26,658 nt of DNA, taken from positions 1 to 26,658 of IMG/VR virus record IMGVR_UViG_3300030737_000039; one strand, given 5' to 3'. The DNA is from a virus. Its lineage: Duplodnaviria > Caudoviricetes. Both the position numbers and the translations under genes were made by a program. This document shows, piece by piece, positions 2 through 23,603 of the stretch (positions within the stretch are counted from its first letter, which is position 1; the number at the start of each line of letters is the position of its first letter). The notes under the pieces are model-generated. The model was not told the DNA's origin, did not search any database, and saw only the letters and a list, made by a program, of their open reading frames with translations.

Positions 2-973
2 AATCTCGCGATGGATGCTCAGCCGCAACTCGTGACGGCGCCGAACTCAGGAATCCCGGCGTATCTGACGTACTTCCTCGACCCGGATATTCTGCGCGTT
101 GCAACCGCAGAACTGGAAGCCGCAAACATTTTCGGCGAGCTGCAAAAAGGCGACTGGACCAGCTCGGAACTGATCTTCCCGGTTGTGGAGCGGACATACG
201 AGGTGAGTTCGTATGGAGACTTCGTTGAAAACGGTCGCTCGGGTATCAACACGAACTTCCCGTCGCGCCAGCCGTATCTCTTCCAAGTGATGGCGGAGTA
301 TGGCGATTTGGAAATCGAAAAAGTTGGCCTGGCAAAGATCGGCTTTGTTTCGGAACAGAAAGAGGCTGCTATTTACGGCTTGAATCAGTACACGAACCTG
401 ACGTATTTCAAGGGCGTGGCTGGACTAGCCAACTACGGTGCGCTCAACGACCCCTCGCTTTACCCGGCGATCGCGCCGATCCCTAAAGCGAATGGCGGCA
501 TCGCCTGGCTTAACGGCACGTCGATCAACGCAAGTGCAAACGAGATCTTCTCGGACATCCAGGCGGTTGTGATTCAGTCGATCAACCAGTCGTCGGGGCA
601 GATCAACACGAAGTCGAAATTTGTTTTGAACATGTCGCCGCGCAGCGAAGGCGCGATGACCGCGACCAACTCGTTCAATGTGAATGTTGCGGCGCTGTTG
701 AAGCTCAACTTTCCGAACCTCGAAGTCAAGACCGCCATGCAGTATGGCGCGCTGACCGCGCAGAATCCGCAGGGTTCGGCATTGGGCGAGATCGTTCAGT
801 TGTGGGCTCCGGAAGCTGGCGGCCAAAAGTCTGGCTACTGCGCTTTCAATACCAAGCTTCGCGCAGGCCCGGTTATCAGAGCCACCAGCTCCTATAAACA
901 AAAATTAATGCAAGGAACGGCTGGATTTGTAATGAGGCAGCCATTTGCGATGTCGCAACTTATAGGTGTTTGA
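2..973 (+). CDS. Major capsid protein (DUF2184-like), probably 5'-truncated by the window edge
   Basis: Frame is open to the window start (N-L-A-MDAQPQLVT...). Motifs 'NSGIPAYLT..LDP', 'KGDWT', 'SSYGDF', 'YGALNDP' match my recollection of Bcep781-like capsid proteins; lies directly before the neck genes. Confidence 0.85.
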   Translation, partial: NLAMDAQPQLVTAPNSGIPAYLTYFLDPDILRVATAELEAANIFGELQKGDWTSSELIFPVVERTYEVSSYGDFVENGRSGINTNFPSRQPYLFQVMAEYGDLEIEKVGLAKIGFVSEQKEAAIYGLNQYTNLTYFKGVAGLANYGALNDPSLYPAIAPIPKANGGIAWLNGTSINASANEIFSDIQAVVIQSINQSSGQINTKSKFVLNMSPRSEGAMTATNSFNVNVAALLKLNFPNLEVKTAMQYGALTAQNPQGSALGEIVQLWAPEAGGQKSGYCAFNTKLRAGPVIRATSSYKQKLMQGTAGFVMRQPFAMSQLIGV

Positions 974-988
974 TGTAAGATTGCAGAG

Positions 989-1076
989 CACGCCTAGGCT
1001 TAGCGGCCGAAAACCCCTTGAACAAGGGCTGGCGTGTCATCTCTCGTTCGATAATCCTCCGTTCAAGGATTGAACC
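989..1076 (+). promoter_or_regulatory. Structured 5' leader (three-way junction, copy 1) upstream of the HNH gene
   Basis: P1 CACGCC 989-994/GGCGTG 1031-1036; P2 GGC 997-999/GCC 1006-1008; GAAAA; P3 CCCTTG 1015-1020/CAAGGG 1023-1028. CCTTGAAC (1016-1023) is complementary to GTTCAAGG (1061-1068), which overlaps the SD. Confidence 0.6.
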
Positions 1077-1904
1077 ATGATTACCAAATTCTGCCGCAAG
1101 TGCGGCGTAGAGCAGTCTATTTCGGCATTTTCAGCGCACCGAAGAAGTGCTGACGGGCTAGATTCTCGATGCAAAATGTGTATCCGGCTTCGTGACACGG
1201 AGCGGCGCGCGAAAAGTGCCTCAGCAGCCAGAGCAGCGGCCGCACAAGCCAAGTTTGATGACAAGATGACGCGCGGGGTGAAATGGTGTCATGCCTGTTC
1301 CTCGGAAAAGACTCGCGAGTCTTTTGCTGTGCAGAAGCGCACTAAGGATGGCCTGCAATCTATGTGCAAGGCATGCCGCGCCTCCCACTACGCGGAGAAT
1401 TCCAAGCGCATTCTAGCTAATCAATCCCAGTATTACGTATTGAATGCAGATAGGATAAAGGCCAGAGAGGCCGCCCGATATGCATCTGATCCGGATAGGA
1501 TTAAAGATCGTGTAAAGCAGTACTACCTCAAAAACACTGACGCAAAAAAGGCATACAACGCCGTCTATAGCATGCAATTCAGGGCGCACAACCGCGAGAA
1601 GATCAAGGCTTGGCGGGATGCGTGGCGCGCAGCTAATCCGCATAAATACAATGCCTATTGGATGAAGAGGAAGGCAGCTAAGCTGCGCGCCACGCCAATT
1701 TGGGCGGACGATCAAAAAATAGAAGAGTTCTACTTCGCTGCAGATTTCCTTGGAATGATTACTGGCATATGGCATGAAGTGGATCACGTCGTGCCGCTGC
1801 AAGGGAAAATCGTATGCGGCTTGCATGTCCATACTAATATGCAAATCCTGACGCGGTCCGCGAATCGCAGCAAAGGCCACCTCCAATGGCCTGATATGCC
1901 GTAA
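1077..1904 (+). CDS. Free-standing HNH endonuclease with two N-terminal Zn-finger-like repeats
   Basis: Two CxxC...DGLxSxCKxC repeats, a basic helical linker, and C-terminal 'HEVDHVVPLQGKIVCGLHVHTNMQILTRSANRSK' HNH motif; SD AAGGA. Confidence 0.9.
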   Translation: MITKFCRKCGVEQSISAFSAHRRSADGLDSRCKMCIRLRDTERRAKSASAARAAAAQAKFDDKMTRGVKWCHACSSEKTRESFAVQKRTKDGLQSMCKACRASHYAENSKRILANQSQYYVLNADRIKAREAARYASDPDRIKDRVKQYYLKNTDAKKAYNAVYSMQFRAHNREKIKAWRDAWRAANPHKYNAYWMKRKAAKLRATPIWADDQKIEEFYFAADFLGMITGIWHEVDHVVPLQGKIVCGLHVHTNMQILTRSANRSKGHLQWPDMP

Positions 1905-1924
1905 CGCGCAGAAAACCGAACACC

Positions 1925-1948
1925 AAGCCACCTAAGGGTGGCTTTTTT
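1925..1948 (+). terminator. Rho-independent terminator
   Basis: AAGCCACC-TAAG-GGTGGCTT followed by a T tract. Confidence 0.85.
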
Positions 1949-1965
1949 ATTGCCCAGAGTTTTAC

Positions 1966-2058
1966 CCACGCGCATAGGGTAGCACCCGAAACGTCGGCCT
2001 GACCGTACCGGCTGGCGCGTGGTCCTATTTTAACGGTCTCATATTTCAAGGCGGTCAC
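1966..2058 (+). promoter_or_regulatory. Structured 5' leader (three-way junction, copy 2) upstream of the 2059 ORF
   Basis: P1 CCACGCGC 1966-1973/GCGCGTGG 2015-2022; P2 GGGT/ACCC; GAAA; P3 GTCGG 1993-1997/CCGGC 2008-2012. Loop (T)GACCGT is complementary to ACGGTC 2033-2038 and GCGGTCA 2051-2057, next to the ATG. Confidence 0.6.
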
Positions 2059-2538
2059 ATGGCTGGCGACACACTTACGATTAAGAAGCACAACGACTCA
2101 CCGTCCAACGCGACCGTCACCGTCGCATCGAAGTTTCCGATGGATTTCATCCTCCGGCTTCACGACTTCCAGAAGAAGTTTGAGCCGGTGATGGGCGGCG
2201 GATCGCGCGAGTACACGATCGCTGTACCACGTCGCGGCGCCAAAGCGTTTGTCATTCAGGGCAACTCGTTCGCCCAGAACAAGGGTGCCCATCAGCAGAT
2301 CGTCGCCGGCTATGCCTTCACGCACGACATCCCGAAAGCATTCTGGGACGAGTGGGTCGAGCAAAACAAAGACGCCGACTTCATCGTCAACAAGATGCTG
2401 TTTGCTCATTCCGAATCGGCCAGCACCGTATCTCAGTCGAAAGAGATGGAAGCCGAGAAATCAGGCCTTGAACGTATGGACCCGAAGGAAATCTATAAGC
2501 ATGGGCTGGAAACGGCAAGCGAACGTCGGGCCTCCTGA
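2059..2538 (+). CDS. Conserved phage hypothetical protein following the capsid gene (probably virion/head associated)
   Basis: GC3-rich ORF with 'TVTVASKFP', 'IPKAFWDEWVEQNKD', 'EKSGLERMDP' motifs typical of the post-capsid gene in this phage group; synteny. Confidence 0.7.
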   Translation: MAGDTLTIKKHNDSPSNATVTVASKFPMDFILRLHDFQKKFEPVMGGGSREYTIAVPRRGAKAFVIQGNSFAQNKGAHQQIVAGYAFTHDIPKAFWDEWVEQNKDADFIVNKMLFAHSESASTVSQSKEMEAEKSGLERMDPKEIYKHGLETASERRAS

Positions 2539-8413: not shown

Positions 8414-8740
8414 TCACTGGAATGGCTTGGGCTTGCCATGCGGGTAAAGGCAGGCTTGATATACCTGATTTGCAAGAGCAGGGCCGCCGGCATTTACAAA
8501 GCCGGGGTCTGAGTAGACCAGATTGACGATCTGCTTGCCCTGCTCGATAGAGATTCCCCATGCCGACGATGCGGTGATCGTATTGAGCGCTGTTTTCGGT
8601 GGCCAGTTGCTGTCTCGGCCTTGAGCGACCATCTGATAAGCCATTCCGAGTCTCATGCAGTGGTCCTGCTGCGGTGGAGCCTGTTGAGCGATCGCGCAGA
8701 CAGGCGCGAGCAAGGCCAAGAAAAACGTCTTTTTCATCAT
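8414..8740 (-). CDS. Small secreted/periplasmic protein (antisense moron)
   Basis: SD AGGAG 5 nt before the ATG at 8740; signal peptide MMKKTFFLALLAPVCAIA; two Cys in the mature part; only credible minus-strand gene. Confidence 0.75.
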   Translation of the reverse strand: MMKKTFFLALLAPVCAIAQQAPPQQDHCMRLGMAYQMVAQGRDSNWPPKTALNTITASSAWGISIEQGKQIVNLVYSDPGFVNAGGPALANQVYQACLYPHGKPKPFQ

Positions 8741-8783
8741 TTTTGCTCCTGAGTTGGGGTGATACAAAGTCTAAGGGATATTC

Positions 8784-13609: not shown

Positions 13610-15025
13610 ATGGCAACAACTAACGTTCCGTCGCCTACGTTCGGGGCAACCGGGTTCGTTCTGCCGGCAGAGTCCGCAATTCTGACTGGCGTACAGGCAG
13701 ATATCAACCAGGCCTTCGGCGGGACGCTTGACCAGTCACTTACGACGCCTCAGGGCCAACTTGCGCAATCGGAAGCGGCGATTGTGGGCGATGCCAATTC
13801 TCAGTTCCTTTACATCACCAATAACGTTGACCCGGCCTTCGCGTCGGGCCGGTGGCAAGACGGCATAGCGGCCATCTACTTCTTGACGCGTCTTGCCGCG
13901 CAGCCGACGACGCTGCAAATCGCGTGCGTTGGGTTGGTCAATGTGCCGATCCCTGTTGGCGCGCAGATTCAGGACGCAAGCGGGAACATCTATGCCTGCA
14001 CAGTCGGCGGCACGATTCCGATTAGCGGCACGATCACGCTCGCTTTTGCTTGCCTGACGACCGGCCCTATCGCGGTTCCTGCAAGCAATGCCGTCACGAT
14101 CTATCAGGCTATTCCGGGCTGGGACACCGTTACGTGTACGTCGGGCGTAATCGGGCGCGCTGTTGAAAGTCGCGCAGCTTTCGAATTGCGCCGGCAGCAG
14201 AGCGTTGCGCTTAATTCTGTAGGGATGCTCGACTCGATCCTCGCCAATGTGTTGAGTGTGCCAGGTGTGGTCGATGCTTATGTGATCGACAACGATCTCG
14301 GAACCCCCGCGACGATCGGCGGCATTACGCTCAACGCGAATAGCCTCTATGTTTGCGTGGCAGGGAGTTACACCAATCTGGCGGTCGCACAGGCGATCTG
14401 GCTTAAAAAGCCGCCCGGCTGTAATTACACCGGCAACACGCCCGTCACGGTCACAGACCCGAATCCTCTTTATTCGTCGCCGCCCAGCTACACGGTGTCG
14501 TTCCAGACAGCGATCAATACACCAATCTTCTTTTTGGTGACGCTTAAGAACAGTGCGGCAGTTCCGTCGACTGCGTTGGCGCAGATTCAAGCCGCGTTTG
14601 TCTCGGCCTTTTCCGGTCAGGACGGCGGCACTGTGCCGCGCCTTGGCTCCGAACTCTTCGCGAGCCGGTTCTATTCCGATGTCGCCGCACTGGGCTCGTG
14701 GGCACAGATCATTTCGTTGCAGATCGGGTGCATCAACGTCCCGTCTGCCACGTTCACCGGCTCCATCGCTGCAAACACGCTGACTGTCTCAAGCGTCGCA
14801 TCGGGCACGATCGCAATCGGCCAGTTCATAGCCGACGCGTCAGGCCACATCGTATCGGGTACTCAGATCACAGCCGGTAGCGGAACGTCGTGGACAGTGA
14901 GCATTGCGCAAACGGTAACGAGCGAAACGATGGTTGGAGTGATTCCGAACCAGAACGACGTCACCATGAATATCAATCAGGAGCCGACGTTTGCCGCGGC
15001 GAATGTGCTTTTGACGTTGGTCTGA
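13610..15025 (+). CDS. Baseplate J-like wedge protein
   Basis: 'TPQGQLA', 'VDPAFASGRWQDGIAAIYFL.R', 'ESRAAFELRRQQSVA'; beta-domain insert at 14747-14938. Confidence 0.9.
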   Translation: MATTNVPSPTFGATGFVLPAESAILTGVQADINQAFGGTLDQSLTTPQGQLAQSEAAIVGDANSQFLYITNNVDPAFASGRWQDGIAAIYFLTRLAAQPTTLQIACVGLVNVPIPVGAQIQDASGNIYACTVGGTIPISGTITLAFACLTTGPIAVPASNAVTIYQAIPGWDTVTCTSGVIGRAVESRAAFELRRQQSVALNSVGMLDSILANVLSVPGVVDAYVIDNDLGTPATIGGITLNANSLYVCVAGSYTNLAVAQAIWLKKPPGCNYTGNTPVTVTDPNPLYSSPPSYTVSFQTAINTPIFFLVTLKNSAAVPSTALAQIQAAFVSAFSGQDGGTVPRLGSELFASRFYSDVAALGSWAQIISLQIGCINVPSATFTGSIAANTLTVSSVASGTIAIGQFIADASGHIVSGTQITAGSGTSWTVSIAQTVTSETMVGVIPNQNDVTMNINQEPTFAAANVLLTLV

Positions 15026-19138: not shown

Positions 19139-20275
19139 GTGGAAAGGAAATTGCAAGATACCAAAAGCAGCTTTGCCGCTGATAAGAAATTAGCAGGAAT
19201 CCATGGCTTGCGATTCCTGGCATTTTTTATGGTCTTGATTTTTCATTTAAGGGATGTGGCTGGCATCGCTCCCTCGGGTGGCTTCGACAGGAATCTTGGT
19301 TCGGGCGTTCGTCTGTTCTTCGTTATTAGCGCATTCTCGCTGATGTACTCGACCACTCGATACATGGCGCGTCCAGACTGGATCAAGGTGTTCGCTGTTA
19401 AGCGATTTTTCAGGATCGCGCCCCTGTTCTATTTGATGATCATCGCAACGTCTTTTGTGGGGATCATGGGTCCTCACAATCTCGTTGATGCGATTCTGAG
19501 TTTCGGTTTTGTTTTCAATTTCATGCCGGACCAGCAGGGGAGCCTAGTCTGGGCCGGCTGGACCGTCGGTGTCGAAATGATCTTCTACGCCATGATGCCG
19601 TTGATTATCGGCTGCATCATTGGCGTCCGCAGTTCCATATTATTTCTGGGTGCTGGGATTGTCTTGGGCTACGCCGCCCTGAATGCACAAGTACACCCGG
19701 GGATGCCGCACCTATTCTCTTACATGACATTCCCGGGGCAGATACAGTTTTTCGCAGCAGGGACCGCAGCATACTTCATCTACCTTGCGGCACAAAAGTC
19801 CGTAGCGAATGTCATGCCAGTCGTCATCGCTCTGGCGATCGTGGTCGCAGTCGGAGCGTGGTCAATCGTGACTCCGAGAATTTCGTCCCTTCCGGTATCG
19901 ACCGAGTTGGAAAGAAATTACGCATCGTGCATTCTGGTGTTCGGCGCGCTTGTAATCTGGCAGGCGATCAAACCGAGCTGGGTATTCTCAAATCGGTTCG
20001 TTGTCTACTGGGGCGAGCGCAGTTACAGCATGTATCTTCTGCACGGCCCTATCTTGATTTTTGGCCATCCACTCTGGGTAAATATCGTCGCGCGGGTAGG
20101 GCTGACTTTGGGCTATCCGGCTGTTGCCATAGTCGCTCTTGTCTTGGTTCTCTGTTCGTCGTGGGTCACTTATCGATTCATAGAGCGGCCGGGAATGCAG
20201 CTTGGGTCTAGGTTATATCGAGCAAGAGAAGACATATCTGCGCCTTCACGAACAAAAGTGATCGGGGAGTGGTGA
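19139..20275 (+). CDS. Acyltransferase-3 (OafA/Oac-like) membrane O-acyltransferase
   Basis: Many hydrophobic segments; motifs 'IHGLRFLA....IFH', 'GVRLFFVISAF', 'KRFFRIAP', 'WTVGVEMIFY', 'GERSYSMYLLH', 'YRFIERP'. No SGNH fusion. Confidence 0.92.
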   Translation: MERKLQDTKSSFAADKKLAGIHGLRFLAFFMVLIFHLRDVAGIAPSGGFDRNLGSGVRLFFVISAFSLMYSTTRYMARPDWIKVFAVKRFFRIAPLFYLMIIATSFVGIMGPHNLVDAILSFGFVFNFMPDQQGSLVWAGWTVGVEMIFYAMMPLIIGCIIGVRSSILFLGAGIVLGYAALNAQVHPGMPHLFSYMTFPGQIQFFAAGTAAYFIYLAAQKSVANVMPVVIALAIVVAVGAWSIVTPRISSLPVSTELERNYASCILVFGALVIWQAIKPSWVFSNRFVVYWGERSYSMYLLHGPILIFGHPLWVNIVARVGLTLGYPAVAIVALVLVLCSSWVTYRFIERPGMQLGSRLYRAREDISAPSRTKVIGEW

Positions 20276-21281: not shown

Positions 21282-23603
21282 ATGGCCTATACAAAGTTTT
21301 GGGTCATTACCGCGACCGGCCCCAACTCCGGGGTTATGCCATCGGACTTCAACCCCCTGAACAACAAGGTTGAAGTCCTATCAGGTGCCGGCGGCGGATC
21401 CAACGGTCTAGGCGAAAGCGGTGGTGCTGGGGCTAGTTATTCCAGCGTCACCAACATCTCGCTTGCCGCCGGCGCGGCGGTGAATTGGAGCGTCGGTACC
21501 GGTGGCGGCGGCGGCACGGCTGGCACGTCTCTCGTCTCTGGCAGCGCGGGTGCTGATACGTGGTTTGGCGCGACCACTATCGCGGCTTCTCTGGTTGGTG
21601 CGAAGGGCAGTACAGGCGGTGGTAATGGCGTAGGCGGTGTAGCTACCACGACCGGTGCCATCGGTACGGTCAAGACTTTGGGTGGTGCCGGCGGCGCATC
21701 AGTGAGTTGGGCCGGTGGCGGTGGTGGTGCGGCCGGTCCTAATGGTGTAGGGGCAGCAGGCGGCACATCAGGGGCTAACTTTGGCGGCGGCGGTGGCGGC
21801 GGCGCTGATGGCGGCGCGACTCCAGCCGCTAACACAGGCAATCCCGGCGCAACGGGGGGCACAGGTCCAGGTAGTTCCGCCGGCGGTATCGGCGGCGCAT
21901 CCACGGCCTCGCCGAATGGCGGTACAGGTGCCGCTGGCGCAGGCGGCGGCGGGGCGTTTGGCGACGGTGGCACGACTACCAGCGGTAACGGCGGTGCGGG
22001 CGGCGCTGGCACCGACATGGCTAACGGTGCTGCGGGTGCCGGCGGTGGCGGCGGTGGTTGCGGTTCGGGTACTGGCGCTAATACGGGCGGTGCAGGCGGC
22101 GCATATGGTGGTGGTGGTGGCGGCGGTGGATATAACGCCGGCACTGGTGGGGCAGGCGGGGCAGGCTCGCAAGGCCTTATCGTTGTCAGCTATACGCCGG
22201 TTGCTACGGGCTCCGTGGCGTCAACGCAGCAGCCAAACACTGCGGCCGCTGCGAGCAATATCGCCATCAGCGCTTCGGTAGCGTCATCTCAACACGCGAA
22301 CACCGCAGCAGCATCGAGCAGCATTGGCGTAAGCGCGGCCGCAGCAAGTACGCAGCAGAAAAACACCAGCAGCGCGGCCGCGGCAATTGGCCTATCGGCA
22401 ACAGCCGCCAGTACGCAGCAACCGAACGCCAGTTCCGCGTCGGCTTCGGTCGGTTCCACGGCGCTCACCGCTTCGGTCGCAGCGACGCAAGCGCCTAACA
22501 CGAGCGCGGCTTCAGCTTCGGTGTCGCTGGCGGCAACTGCGACAAGTACGCAGGGCGGCAACGTCGCATCGGCATCGGGGCAAGTCTCGGTGTCTTCGGC
22601 GGCATCGGCCACGCAGAGCGGCAACACGGCGTCGGCAAGCGCGAGCGTGCCGGTCAATGGCGCGGCTGCATCAACCCAAGCGAAGAATGCCGCAGCGAGT
22701 GGGGCAACTATTTTGGCGACGGCTTCGGCCGCACCGACTCAGCAGCCCAATGTAAGCAGTGCGTCAAGTGCGGTCGGCGTAACGTCGGCAGCAGCGAGTA
22801 CGCAAGCAGTCAATGTCGCTATAGCATCCAGCGGGGTATTGGCATCGGGTGCCGCCGCCTCGACGCAAGCCAAGAACGTAGCAGCATCGGCCAGCTCGAT
22901 ATCTGTCGGCGCATCGGCCGCGCCGGCGCAACAACCGAACGCGAGCAACGCACTCAGTGCAGTAGCCATCGCAACATCCGCAGCGAGCACTCAAGCACCA
23001 AACGTAGCGAACTCGACGGCGGCGATCGGCAGCATTGCGCTGGCATCGGCCGCGCCCGTGCAGGCACCGAACGCCGCGTCAGTCTCAGCGACGATCGGCG
23101 TTGCTGGCTCTGTGGCAGTCGCGCAGCACCCGAATTCGTCAGCGGCGTCGGGTGTAGTGGCGACAGCTTCTACCGGATCAGCGACGCAGGCGAAGAACGT
23201 CGGCGCAGCGGCAGGTTCGGTTGCTCTCTCAAGCGTGGCAGCATCTGTTCAAGGCGCGAATGTCGCTGTCTCGACGAGTGCCGTCGGCATCGCAGCATCG
23301 GGTAGTTCAGTTCAGCAGCCCAACACTGCGGCCGCAACGGCGCTTGTCATCGGCAATACGGTCACCGCGACTGCGGCGGCTACTCAGCAACCAAACGCCT
23401 CAGCCGCGAGCGCGTCGATCTCGTGGGTGTTTGTCGACCCGATCGTGTTCACGGTCCCAGCTGAGAACCGAAGCTTCATGGTTCCCGCTGAGACTCGGTC
23501 TTTTGCGGTTCCGGCTGAAAACCGGTCGCTCACCGTTCCGCCTCAGAACCGAAGTTTCGTTGTCCCTGCGGAGGATCGATCTTTCGTGGTTGGCCCCCGG
23601 TAA
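21282..23603 (+). CDS. Fibre-like virion protein: glycine-rich domain, 21-aa QxxN repeats and 9-aa C-terminal repeats
   Basis: About 305-aa Gly-rich domain bounded by 'VEVLSGAGGG' and 'GAGSQGLIVVSY', 19 Ala/Ser repeats, then 5 VPAENRSF-type repeats. Confidence 0.75.
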   Translation: MAYTKFWVITATGPNSGVMPSDFNPLNNKVEVLSGAGGGSNGLGESGGAGASYSSVTNISLAAGAAVNWSVGTGGGGGTAGTSLVSGSAGADTWFGATTIAASLVGAKGSTGGGNGVGGVATTTGAIGTVKTLGGAGGASVSWAGGGGGAAGPNGVGAAGGTSGANFGGGGGGGADGGATPAANTGNPGATGGTGPGSSAGGIGGASTASPNGGTGAAGAGGGGAFGDGGTTTSGNGGAGGAGTDMANGAAGAGGGGGGCGSGTGANTGGAGGAYGGGGGGGGYNAGTGGAGGAGSQGLIVVSYTPVATGSVASTQQPNTAAAASNIAISASVASSQHANTAAASSSIGVSAAAASTQQKNTSSAAAAIGLSATAASTQQPNASSASASVGSTALTASVAATQAPNTSAASASVSLAATATSTQGGNVASASGQVSVSSAASATQSGNTASASASVPVNGAAASTQAKNAAASGATILATASAAPTQQPNVSSASSAVGVTSAAASTQAVNVAIASSGVLASGAAASTQAKNVAASASSISVGASAAPAQQPNASNALSAVAIATSAASTQAPNVANSTAAIGSIALASAAPVQAPNAASVSATIGVAGSVAVAQHPNSSAASGVVATASTGSATQAKNVGAAAGSVALSSVAASVQGANVAVSTSAVGIAASGSSVQQPNTAAATALVIGNTVTATAAATQQPNASAASASISWVFVDPIVFTVPAENRSFMVPAETRSFAVPAENRSLTVPPQNRSFVVPAEDRSFVVGPR
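22218..23420 (+). repeat. 19 degenerate 21-24-aa (about 63-nt) coding repeats, consensus ASTQxPNxxxAxxxIxxxxxA
   Basis: QxxN recurs 19 times in the translation; DNA diverged at synonymous sites. Confidence 0.85.
23454..23588 (+). repeat. Five tandem 27-nt coding repeats (VPAENRSFx)
   Basis: VPAENRSFM-VPAETRSFA-VPAENRSLT-VPPQNRSFV-VPAEDRSFV. Confidence 0.9.

Follow-up and report, generated by a model that had tools for sequence, protein, structure and literature searches.

The window analysed here (the whole stretch of 26,658 nucleotides) is a 26.7-kb virus record from a phage with a contractile tail, with genes for head, tail and lysis assigned by PHROGs and Pfam matches; where homologues of its genes are named, they belong to Paraburkholderia and relatives. 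Near its start, the capsid gene is followed by a first structured RNA (copy 1), an HNH endonuclease gene, a terminator-like hairpin, a second structured RNA (copy 2) and a gene of unknown function. The features of this interval are given below; energies are those of isolated loop-site duplexes, not of pseudoknot models.

11..973, plus strand: major capsid protein gene (phrog_264, E 5.5e-47)
976..981, plus strand: -10-like hexamer TAAGAT, 7 nt 5' of stem P1 of copy 1, 4/6 match
988..1037, plus strand: RNA copy 1, treated as int-alpA, leader of the HNH gene (RF02996, 32.7 bits, E 0.0029; fold)
1046..1051, plus strand: proximal (putative decoy) site of copy 1 (6 bp, one G-U; loop duplex -5.9 kcal/mol)
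1061..1068, plus strand: ribosome-binding-site (RBS) site of copy 1, overlapping the AAGGA Shine-Dalgarno (loop duplex -9.3 kcal/mol)
1077..1904, plus strand: free-standing HNH endonuclease gene (phrog_1035, phrog_2340, phrog_2255)
1925..1950, plus strand: intrinsic-terminator-like hairpin with T run, closing the nuclease cassette (terminator scan)
1966..2022, plus strand: int-alpA RNA copy 2, leader of the 2059..2538 gene (RF02996, 37.1 bits, E 0.00021)
2033..2038, plus strand: proximal (putative decoy) site of copy 2 (loop duplex -10.1 kcal/mol)
2051..2057, plus strand: RBS site of copy 2, overlapping the Shine-Dalgarno-like AGGCGGU (loop duplex -11.6 kcal/mol)
2059..2538, plus strand: conserved gene of unknown function, between the capsid and DUF4054 virion genes (phrog_2085)

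The two RNAs had initially been described as flanking the HNH gene, which is right as to position and misleading as to sense, as each copy leads its own downstream gene. The HNH gene, for which no Pfam match was found, likely encodes a homing endonuclease; it is inserted after the capsid gene, is not present in L006 and L007, and has a homologue at the same site in the relative L763. The capsid gene is AT-rich at its 3' end, with a GC3 of 0.40 in the last 30 codons versus 0.68 earlier, and this end was possibly recoded along with the nuclease insertion; the nuclease-bearing L763 shows no such drop (0.60 vs. 0.62). The TAAGAT hexamer is also present after the capsid stop in L763 and is predicted to act as a weak promoter that drives the nuclease cassette; the promoter scan gave no call at 976-981. 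A short GCAG(T/C)A-like motif lies just 5' of P1 in the window (983-988) and at the orthologous loci L753-L781, and also precedes the terminator-like hairpin in leaderless relatives. The gene at 2059-2538 has 67 homologues, the named ones in Paraburkholderia, Burkholderia and Robbsia, and in the Atlas it is found in unnamed viral clusters only.

Both RNAs match the Rfam family int-alpA (RF02996) full-length, over model positions 1-71, at E-values that make a chance match unlikely (0.0029 for copy 1 and 0.00021 for copy 2). Copy 2 passes the gathering cut-off of the family (37.1 vs. 35.8 bits); copy 1 falls just under it (32.7 bits), with int-alpA as its best family, and is treated here as a divergent int-alpA copy and not as a formal member. 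On covariance model R1, which was built with copy 1 included, copy 1 scores 47.2 bits. The three-way junctions carry the int-alpA consensus junction letters, save for an unpaired A in place of the consensus C at position 1974 of copy 2. The initial annotation had considered the RNA unrecognised, and perhaps an undescribed family, and had proposed an Rfam scan; with that scan run, a new RNA family is ruled out, since the family is already catalogued.

The int-alpA motif reportedly originates in the 2017 survey of Weinberg et al. Rfam types RF02996 as 'Gene; sRNA' and gives no function, and because its consensus loop and 3' tail are mutually complementary, the pairing of the loop with the proximal site (site 1) may already be known to the Rfam curators or drawn in the original int-alpA description. 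The term 'alpA' does not occur in the accessible part of the main text of PMC5737381. In the literature searched, where subscription papers are mostly outside coverage, we found no functional study of int-alpA; in the partial texts available, the term is used for a gene order, and the RNA appears as a table entry. The two copies share with RF02996 the three-way junction, the junction letters and the 3' tail, and differ from it in the second site, which overlaps the RBS and lies outside the Rfam model. While the family name implies an integrase-alpA module, the copies described here lie in a head-gene region and lead an HNH gene and a capsid-adjacent gene. Among 14 bacterial int-alpA loci checked, an integrase lies directly upstream in six, and alpA is the first downstream ORF in none.

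Further int-alpA elements above the cut-off were seen at L267:782-849 (minus strand) and in L271, the former placed between an array of five tRNAs, which it directly follows, and a replication-initiation gene; a strong GGAGGT-type RBS suggests a non-proteobacterial host. In K1G-type phages, the operon of the tail assembly chaperone begins with an int-alpA-like leader that has a -10-like box, as in Escherichia phage K1G (L808, NC_027993.1, leader at about 14800-14890) and, of the same kind, in L012 (33.5 bits, under the cut-off), which offers a culturable model for testing. No match to the L011-type element was found in annotated phages.

In their minimum-energy folds, both copies are three-way junctions, and the sequence and folds bear out the two junctions described initially at these positions. 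In copy 1, P1 pairs 988/989-994 with 1031-1036/1037 and P2 pairs 997-1000 with 1005-1008, followed by GAAAA at 1009-1013 and the P3 hairpin at 1014-1028 with the guide loop at 1017-1023; the P3 stem is short, and the fold can bury part of the guide. In copy 2, P1 pairs 1966-1973 with 2015-2022, P2 1977-1979 with 1985-1987 and P3 1993-1997 with 2008-2012, with the guide loop at 1998-2007. The stability of the folds is unexceptional (z -1.59 for copy 1 and -1.30 for copy 2 vs. shuffles), and for a longer fragment, 1955-2085, the centroid structure differs. The four loop-complementary sites of the initial annotation were found where it had placed them (1046-1051, 1061-1068, 2033-2038 and 2051-2057), the last ending 1 nt 5' of the start codon. 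In copy 1, the guide sequence is repeated at 1070-1075, where it can close a weak local hairpin over the RBS site (1061..1075, -3.7 kcal/mol). Each loop pairs more weakly with the region of the other copy (-5.8 and -5.3 kcal/mol). Model R1 found no convincing third copy in the window; its weaker matches there (E at least 0.07) are terminator-like hairpins.

Homologues were gathered by six pattern scans that fixed the junction letters and the inner P1 pairs and left the P3 loop free, which, together with previously gathered loci, yielded at least 726 loci. A stem filter blind to the downstream sequence retained at least 322 matches, at least 225 of them distinct, that form 76 single-linkage clusters, each counted once through one representative, including the largest with 95 elements. 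Within a selection of 20 loci, 19 match RF02996, 15 of them above the cut-off, and one, L043, has no match. Junction invariance in this set is imposed by the search patterns, and the pairing in stem alignment A1 (91.6% of cells paired, 248 two-sided changes) is not independent evidence of stem covariation, because the patterns and the filter selected those stems.

Across the 76 clusters, the P3 loop pairs with its own proximal window (+8 to +25) at -8.20 kcal/mol, as compared to -3.89 kcal/mol for permuted pairs (z -19.5), and with its own RBS window (+26 to +55) at -8.18 versus -5.70 kcal/mol (z -11.0); for each window, the own-pair value was reached by 0 of 10000 permutations. Control windows in the coding region and upstream (-40 to -10) gave no loop signal (z -0.2 and -0.5), and neither did P2 when taken as the guide (z -0.1 and -0.6, first 60 clusters). 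The 18 guides that do not resemble an anti-Shine-Dalgarno, having no anti-SD-like triplets, keep the signal (z -8.0 proximal, -5.8 RBS), so that the covariation is not just a Shine-Dalgarno bias, and it is also present in the 30 clusters represented by loci from later scans (z -11.1 proximal, -5.3 RBS). The loop-to-RBS covariation that had been put forward as a test of the initial annotation is thus strongly positive, and the initial picture, in which a variable loop resembling a guide sits on a conserved scaffold and matches two sites within the cognate initiation region, holds over the 76 clusters.

Both sites pair with the loop at -4 kcal/mol or better in 68 of the 76 clusters; in the other eight, one or both are weaker, and some of these may be chance pattern matches. 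Within the 68, an ATG at RBS spacing follows site 2 in 51 clusters and site 1 in 10, site 1 begins 13-17 nt past the P1 junction in 59, and its string takes 64 different forms. The linker before site 1 is poor in G (34 in 579 nt) and contains 37% T; with this composition, and with neither copy in the window flagged by the terminator scan, the possibility that the leader itself is an intrinsic terminator was rejected. The two sites pair with stretches of one loop that overlap and are slightly offset, with site 1 preferring the 3' side, and are therefore mutually exclusive. Their strengths are about equal across the family (31 stronger, 25 weaker and 12 ties in the 68 clusters), so that sequence alone does not set the direction of the switch.

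A -10 box of at least 5/6 that ends 10-16 nt before the UA junction was found in 26 of 74 clusters, as compared to 0-6 in seven control windows, and many copies therefore likely lie at the 5' end of a transcript; copy 1 has its 4/6 box in this family register (976-981), and copy 2 has none. PHROGs families could be assigned to 38 of 98 downstream ORFs (98 of 100 listed, many of them incomplete or related), 24 of which are HNH, GIY-YIG or endonuclease-VII-like nucleases, the other annotated genes encoding tail assembly chaperones, a methyltransferase and replication proteins. Among further downstream ORFs, 7 of 24 are nucleases (24 of 99 listed).

Orthologues of the 2059-2538 gene provide 45 distinct upstream regions, of which 36 were analysed and nine excluded as incomplete, near-duplicate, of other context or with a start that was not located; a Burkholderiaceae-level genome search contributed one close orthologue, L739, among the genomes scored (five were unscored). 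The copy-2 leader and both its sites are found at 22 of the 36 loci, 16 of them directly after the capsid stop with 100-118 nt from stop to start, and copy 2 is therefore the leader resident upstream of the capsid-adjacent gene. In these 22 leaders the loop is nearly invariant and both sites are kept, the RBS site lying at -7 or -8 in 21 and at -11 in one, whereas the stems and the spacer have diverged. In six of the 22, this phage included, the gap is longer and a terminator-like hairpin precedes the leader; no hairpin like that at 1925-1950 was found in the 16 loci where the leader directly follows the capsid stop. Half of the 14 leaderless loci have a terminator-like hairpin in the gap, and the other seven have none. 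In these relatives, the copy-2 leader thus alternates with a predicted, terminator-like hairpin between the capsid gene and the gene behind it, and this alternation within the same gap points to a dampening, or step-down, role.

In L763, the homologous HNH gene has its own junction RNA scaffold and a doubled 5-mer downstream; its loop pairs with this 5-mer through 4 bp at -2.1 kcal/mol, no better than with foreign sites, and we rejected the idea that it provides another code at this site. With model R1, we found no leader travelling with the nuclease family in six distant homologues (31-49% identity). At L773, L774, L780 and L781, leaders that model R1 missed lie some 100 nt 5' of the orthologous gene; in these, the UAG and GAAA junction letters are lost and the three stems, the loop and both sites are kept; the int-alpA family is in this respect wider than its consensus. 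Between the capsid stop and the terminator, L751 (the L006 contig) carries a partial second copy of the capsid 3' end, possibly a scar of nuclease cassette loss. A more distant relative has a different element, with no Rfam match, in the gap after the capsid terminator (L008:5025-5070).

From what was observed above, namely the family membership, the fold, the complementarity and covariation between loop and sites, and the genes around them, we infer the formation of the pairings, their order, the direction of their effect and the promoter of copy 1. We consider it probable, though well short of established, that both copies are int-alpA leaders that act as translational attenuators in cis, each with two exclusive pseudoknots, one to the decoy and one to the RBS. 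With the loop on the proximal decoy site, the RBS would be free and initiation possible; with the loop on the RBS site, initiation would be blocked. The decoy pairing (the ON pseudoknot) would form first and leave the RBS open, since transcription reaches the decoy before the RBS site and the decoy's distance from P1 is nearly fixed, and the RNA would then drift towards the OFF state, because the RBS duplex is the stronger one in both copies here, which would result in low or short-lived output. Copy 2 would in this way make expression of the following gene lower than that of the capsid gene, and copy 1 would have come in with the HNH gene, carrying a different loop code, so that the two should not cross-talk. 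As to the cis translational switch that was suggested initially, the cis role survives as the best reading, with the loop-site covariation behind it. RBS-masking RNA is a known restraint on phage endonuclease genes, as described in the available excerpt of PMC3014915.

Several observations stand against the attenuator and its step-down role, among them the about equal strength of the two sites over the family, the eight clusters in which one or both sites are weak and the short P3 stem of copy 1. In addition, the nuclease leader of L763 pairs only weakly with its own sites (-2.1 kcal/mol), half of the leaderless orthologues (7/14) are without a terminator-like hairpin, and a fixed equilibrium in cis leaves unexplained the self-complementarity of P2 across the family. 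Palindromes of at least 4 nt occur in 24 of 39 distinct P2 loops, as compared to 9.9 ± 2.4 in shuffles (0 of 5000), with nine different central 4-mers, although the shuffle test overstates independence because the loops are related; in P3 loops, such palindromes are instead rarer than expected (7 of 119 vs. 17.8). The commonest P2 loop is GACG, and most non-palindromic P2 loops are either GACG or UAGC-type. This self-complementarity hints at RNA dimers, and GACG tetraloops form loop-loop contacts in MuLV dimers, according to the accessible part of PMC5874298. The kissing loops SL-C and SL-D described there share the GACG tetraloop with the commonest P2 loop, but MuLV is an unrelated virus in which they have another role, and neither copy here has GACG, so we take this as a resemblance only.

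The possible, if somewhat doubtful, alternative that draws on these data is that the RNA senses itself: its own loop would be parked on site 1, and a second molecule, either another leader or a stable fragment cut before site 1, would dock via P2-P2 kissing and bring its free loop to site 2, so that translation falls as the RNA accumulates, following the logic of c4 and CI with a dimerisation handle added. It would account for the two equal sites per loop, and phage RNAs that act in trans on their own mRNA are known in IsrK and P4 CI (available excerpt of PMC4825925). In the present locus, however, the P2 loops (UAGC/UUAGCG and UAGCA) have a self-complementary core of 2 nt only, and a 4-nt palindrome is found in just 2 of the 22 orthologous copy-2 P2 loops, yet all 22 keep the guide loop and both sites; P2 dimerisation may thus matter for the family and looks dispensable in this lineage. 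In addition, the Rfam model runs through site 1, which would occupy the loop, and the processed species is hypothetical. We give limited credence to int-alpA being, by extension, a portable and recodable feedback device made of RNA only, with a guide parked in cis, docking through P2 and a free guide directed to the RBS. If it were, a rise in the concentration of an mRNA would curb the translation of that mRNA; different loop codes, as in the two copies here, would provide independent channels within one genome, and behind the capsid gene the device could take the place of a terminator in stepping expression down.

A switch triggered by a ligand or protein, in which a factor from host or phage would be bound at the conserved junction and shift the loop from decoy to RBS or back, seems unlikely to us. 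Two exclusive pairings match the usual layout of an expression platform, and a multistem junction with a likely pseudoknot flags a demanding function, as stated in the accessible part of PMC5737381. However, no common pathway is apparent downstream, where nucleases, tail chaperones, a methyltransferase, replication proteins and a Rha-like regulator are found, the leaders of L773, L774, L780 and L781 lack the UAG and GAAA junction letters and have nevertheless kept loop and sites, and the invariance of the junction in our set is a product of the search patterns.

Less likely still, the fold would protect or activate the mRNA, as a 5' stabiliser or as a pseudoknot that opens the RBS, with site 2 being incidental. 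Many copies begin just past a -10 box, so that a closed P1 would shield the 5' end, and the loop of copy 1 could open the local RBS hairpin at 1061-1075; this hairpin, however, was not found in the leader of the L763 nuclease gene, the covariation of site 2 with the loop extends to guides that are not anti-SD-like (z -5.8), and site 2 and the ribosome footprint overlap, so that a duplex there should keep the ribosome from binding. That the RNA is a self-cleaving ribozyme, cutting the capsid mRNA apart from that of the following gene, is hardly credible: the three-way junction with GAAA after P2 is loosely hammerhead-like, but no ribozyme family was found in the window at Rfam E-values up to 10, and a UA-only junction of 2 nt stands in place of the CUGANGA catalytic core that precedes stem II in hammerheads.

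P1 c4 shares with the leaders described here that it is a structured RNA from a phage leader with complementarity to sites in the same transcript, and one such pairing sets downstream expression. P4 CI and Gifsy-1 IsrK are likewise phage leader RNAs complementary to sites in their own transcripts, one pairing of which governs downstream expression (available excerpt of PMC4825925), as is predicted here for the attenuator. While the targets of P4 CI, seqA and seqC, lie upstream and downstream of CI according to the same excerpt, both sites lie downstream here, and the upstream window (-40 to -10) carries no signal (z -0.5). There is furthermore no sequence or Rfam match to P4 CI, c4 or IsrK, with no C4-type Rfam family found in the window at E-values up to 10, and the processed antisense RNA suggested initially is a possibility only, with processing and action in trans hypothetical in our case.

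In T4-like phages, hairpins sequester the RBS of I-TevI, I-TevII, I-TevIII, mobE and segB (available excerpt of PMC3014915), and they have in common with the present leaders an RNA pairing across the Shine-Dalgarno of a phage endonuclease gene. In contrast to these hairpins, which the same excerpt describes as simple, local and removed by promoter choice, int-alpA has a portable three-way junction, a recodable loop and a putative decoy, and also serves genes other than nucleases.

An orphan Rfam motif gains a specific, testable mechanism, with a recodable loop, a decoy and an RBS target, and with covariation over dozens of codes; to this the present locus adds two differently coded copies in one operon, and its relatives the alternation of leader and terminator-like hairpin in one and the same gap behind the capsid gene. 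What is new here is the permutation evidence over 76 clusters and this post-capsid alternation. If the proposed attenuation holds true, selfish nuclease genes would arrive in strongly transcribed late operons with a brake of their own, and the leader would be a compact, orthogonal part for translation control; if P2 dimerisation holds true as well, it would make an unusual concentration-sensing mRNA.

Elsewhere in the window, a small ORF with a signal-peptide-like start lies on the opposite strand (8414-8767, minus strand), just before a tape-measure-sized gene, and has no PHROGs or Pfam match. An O-acetyltransferase gene (Acyl_transf_3; 19139-20275, plus strand), which resembles an add-on surface-modifying gene, is followed by a terminator-like hairpin, and 3' of the lysozyme gene lies a repetitive ORF of 773 aa that is rich in Gly, Ala and Ser (21282-23603, plus strand).
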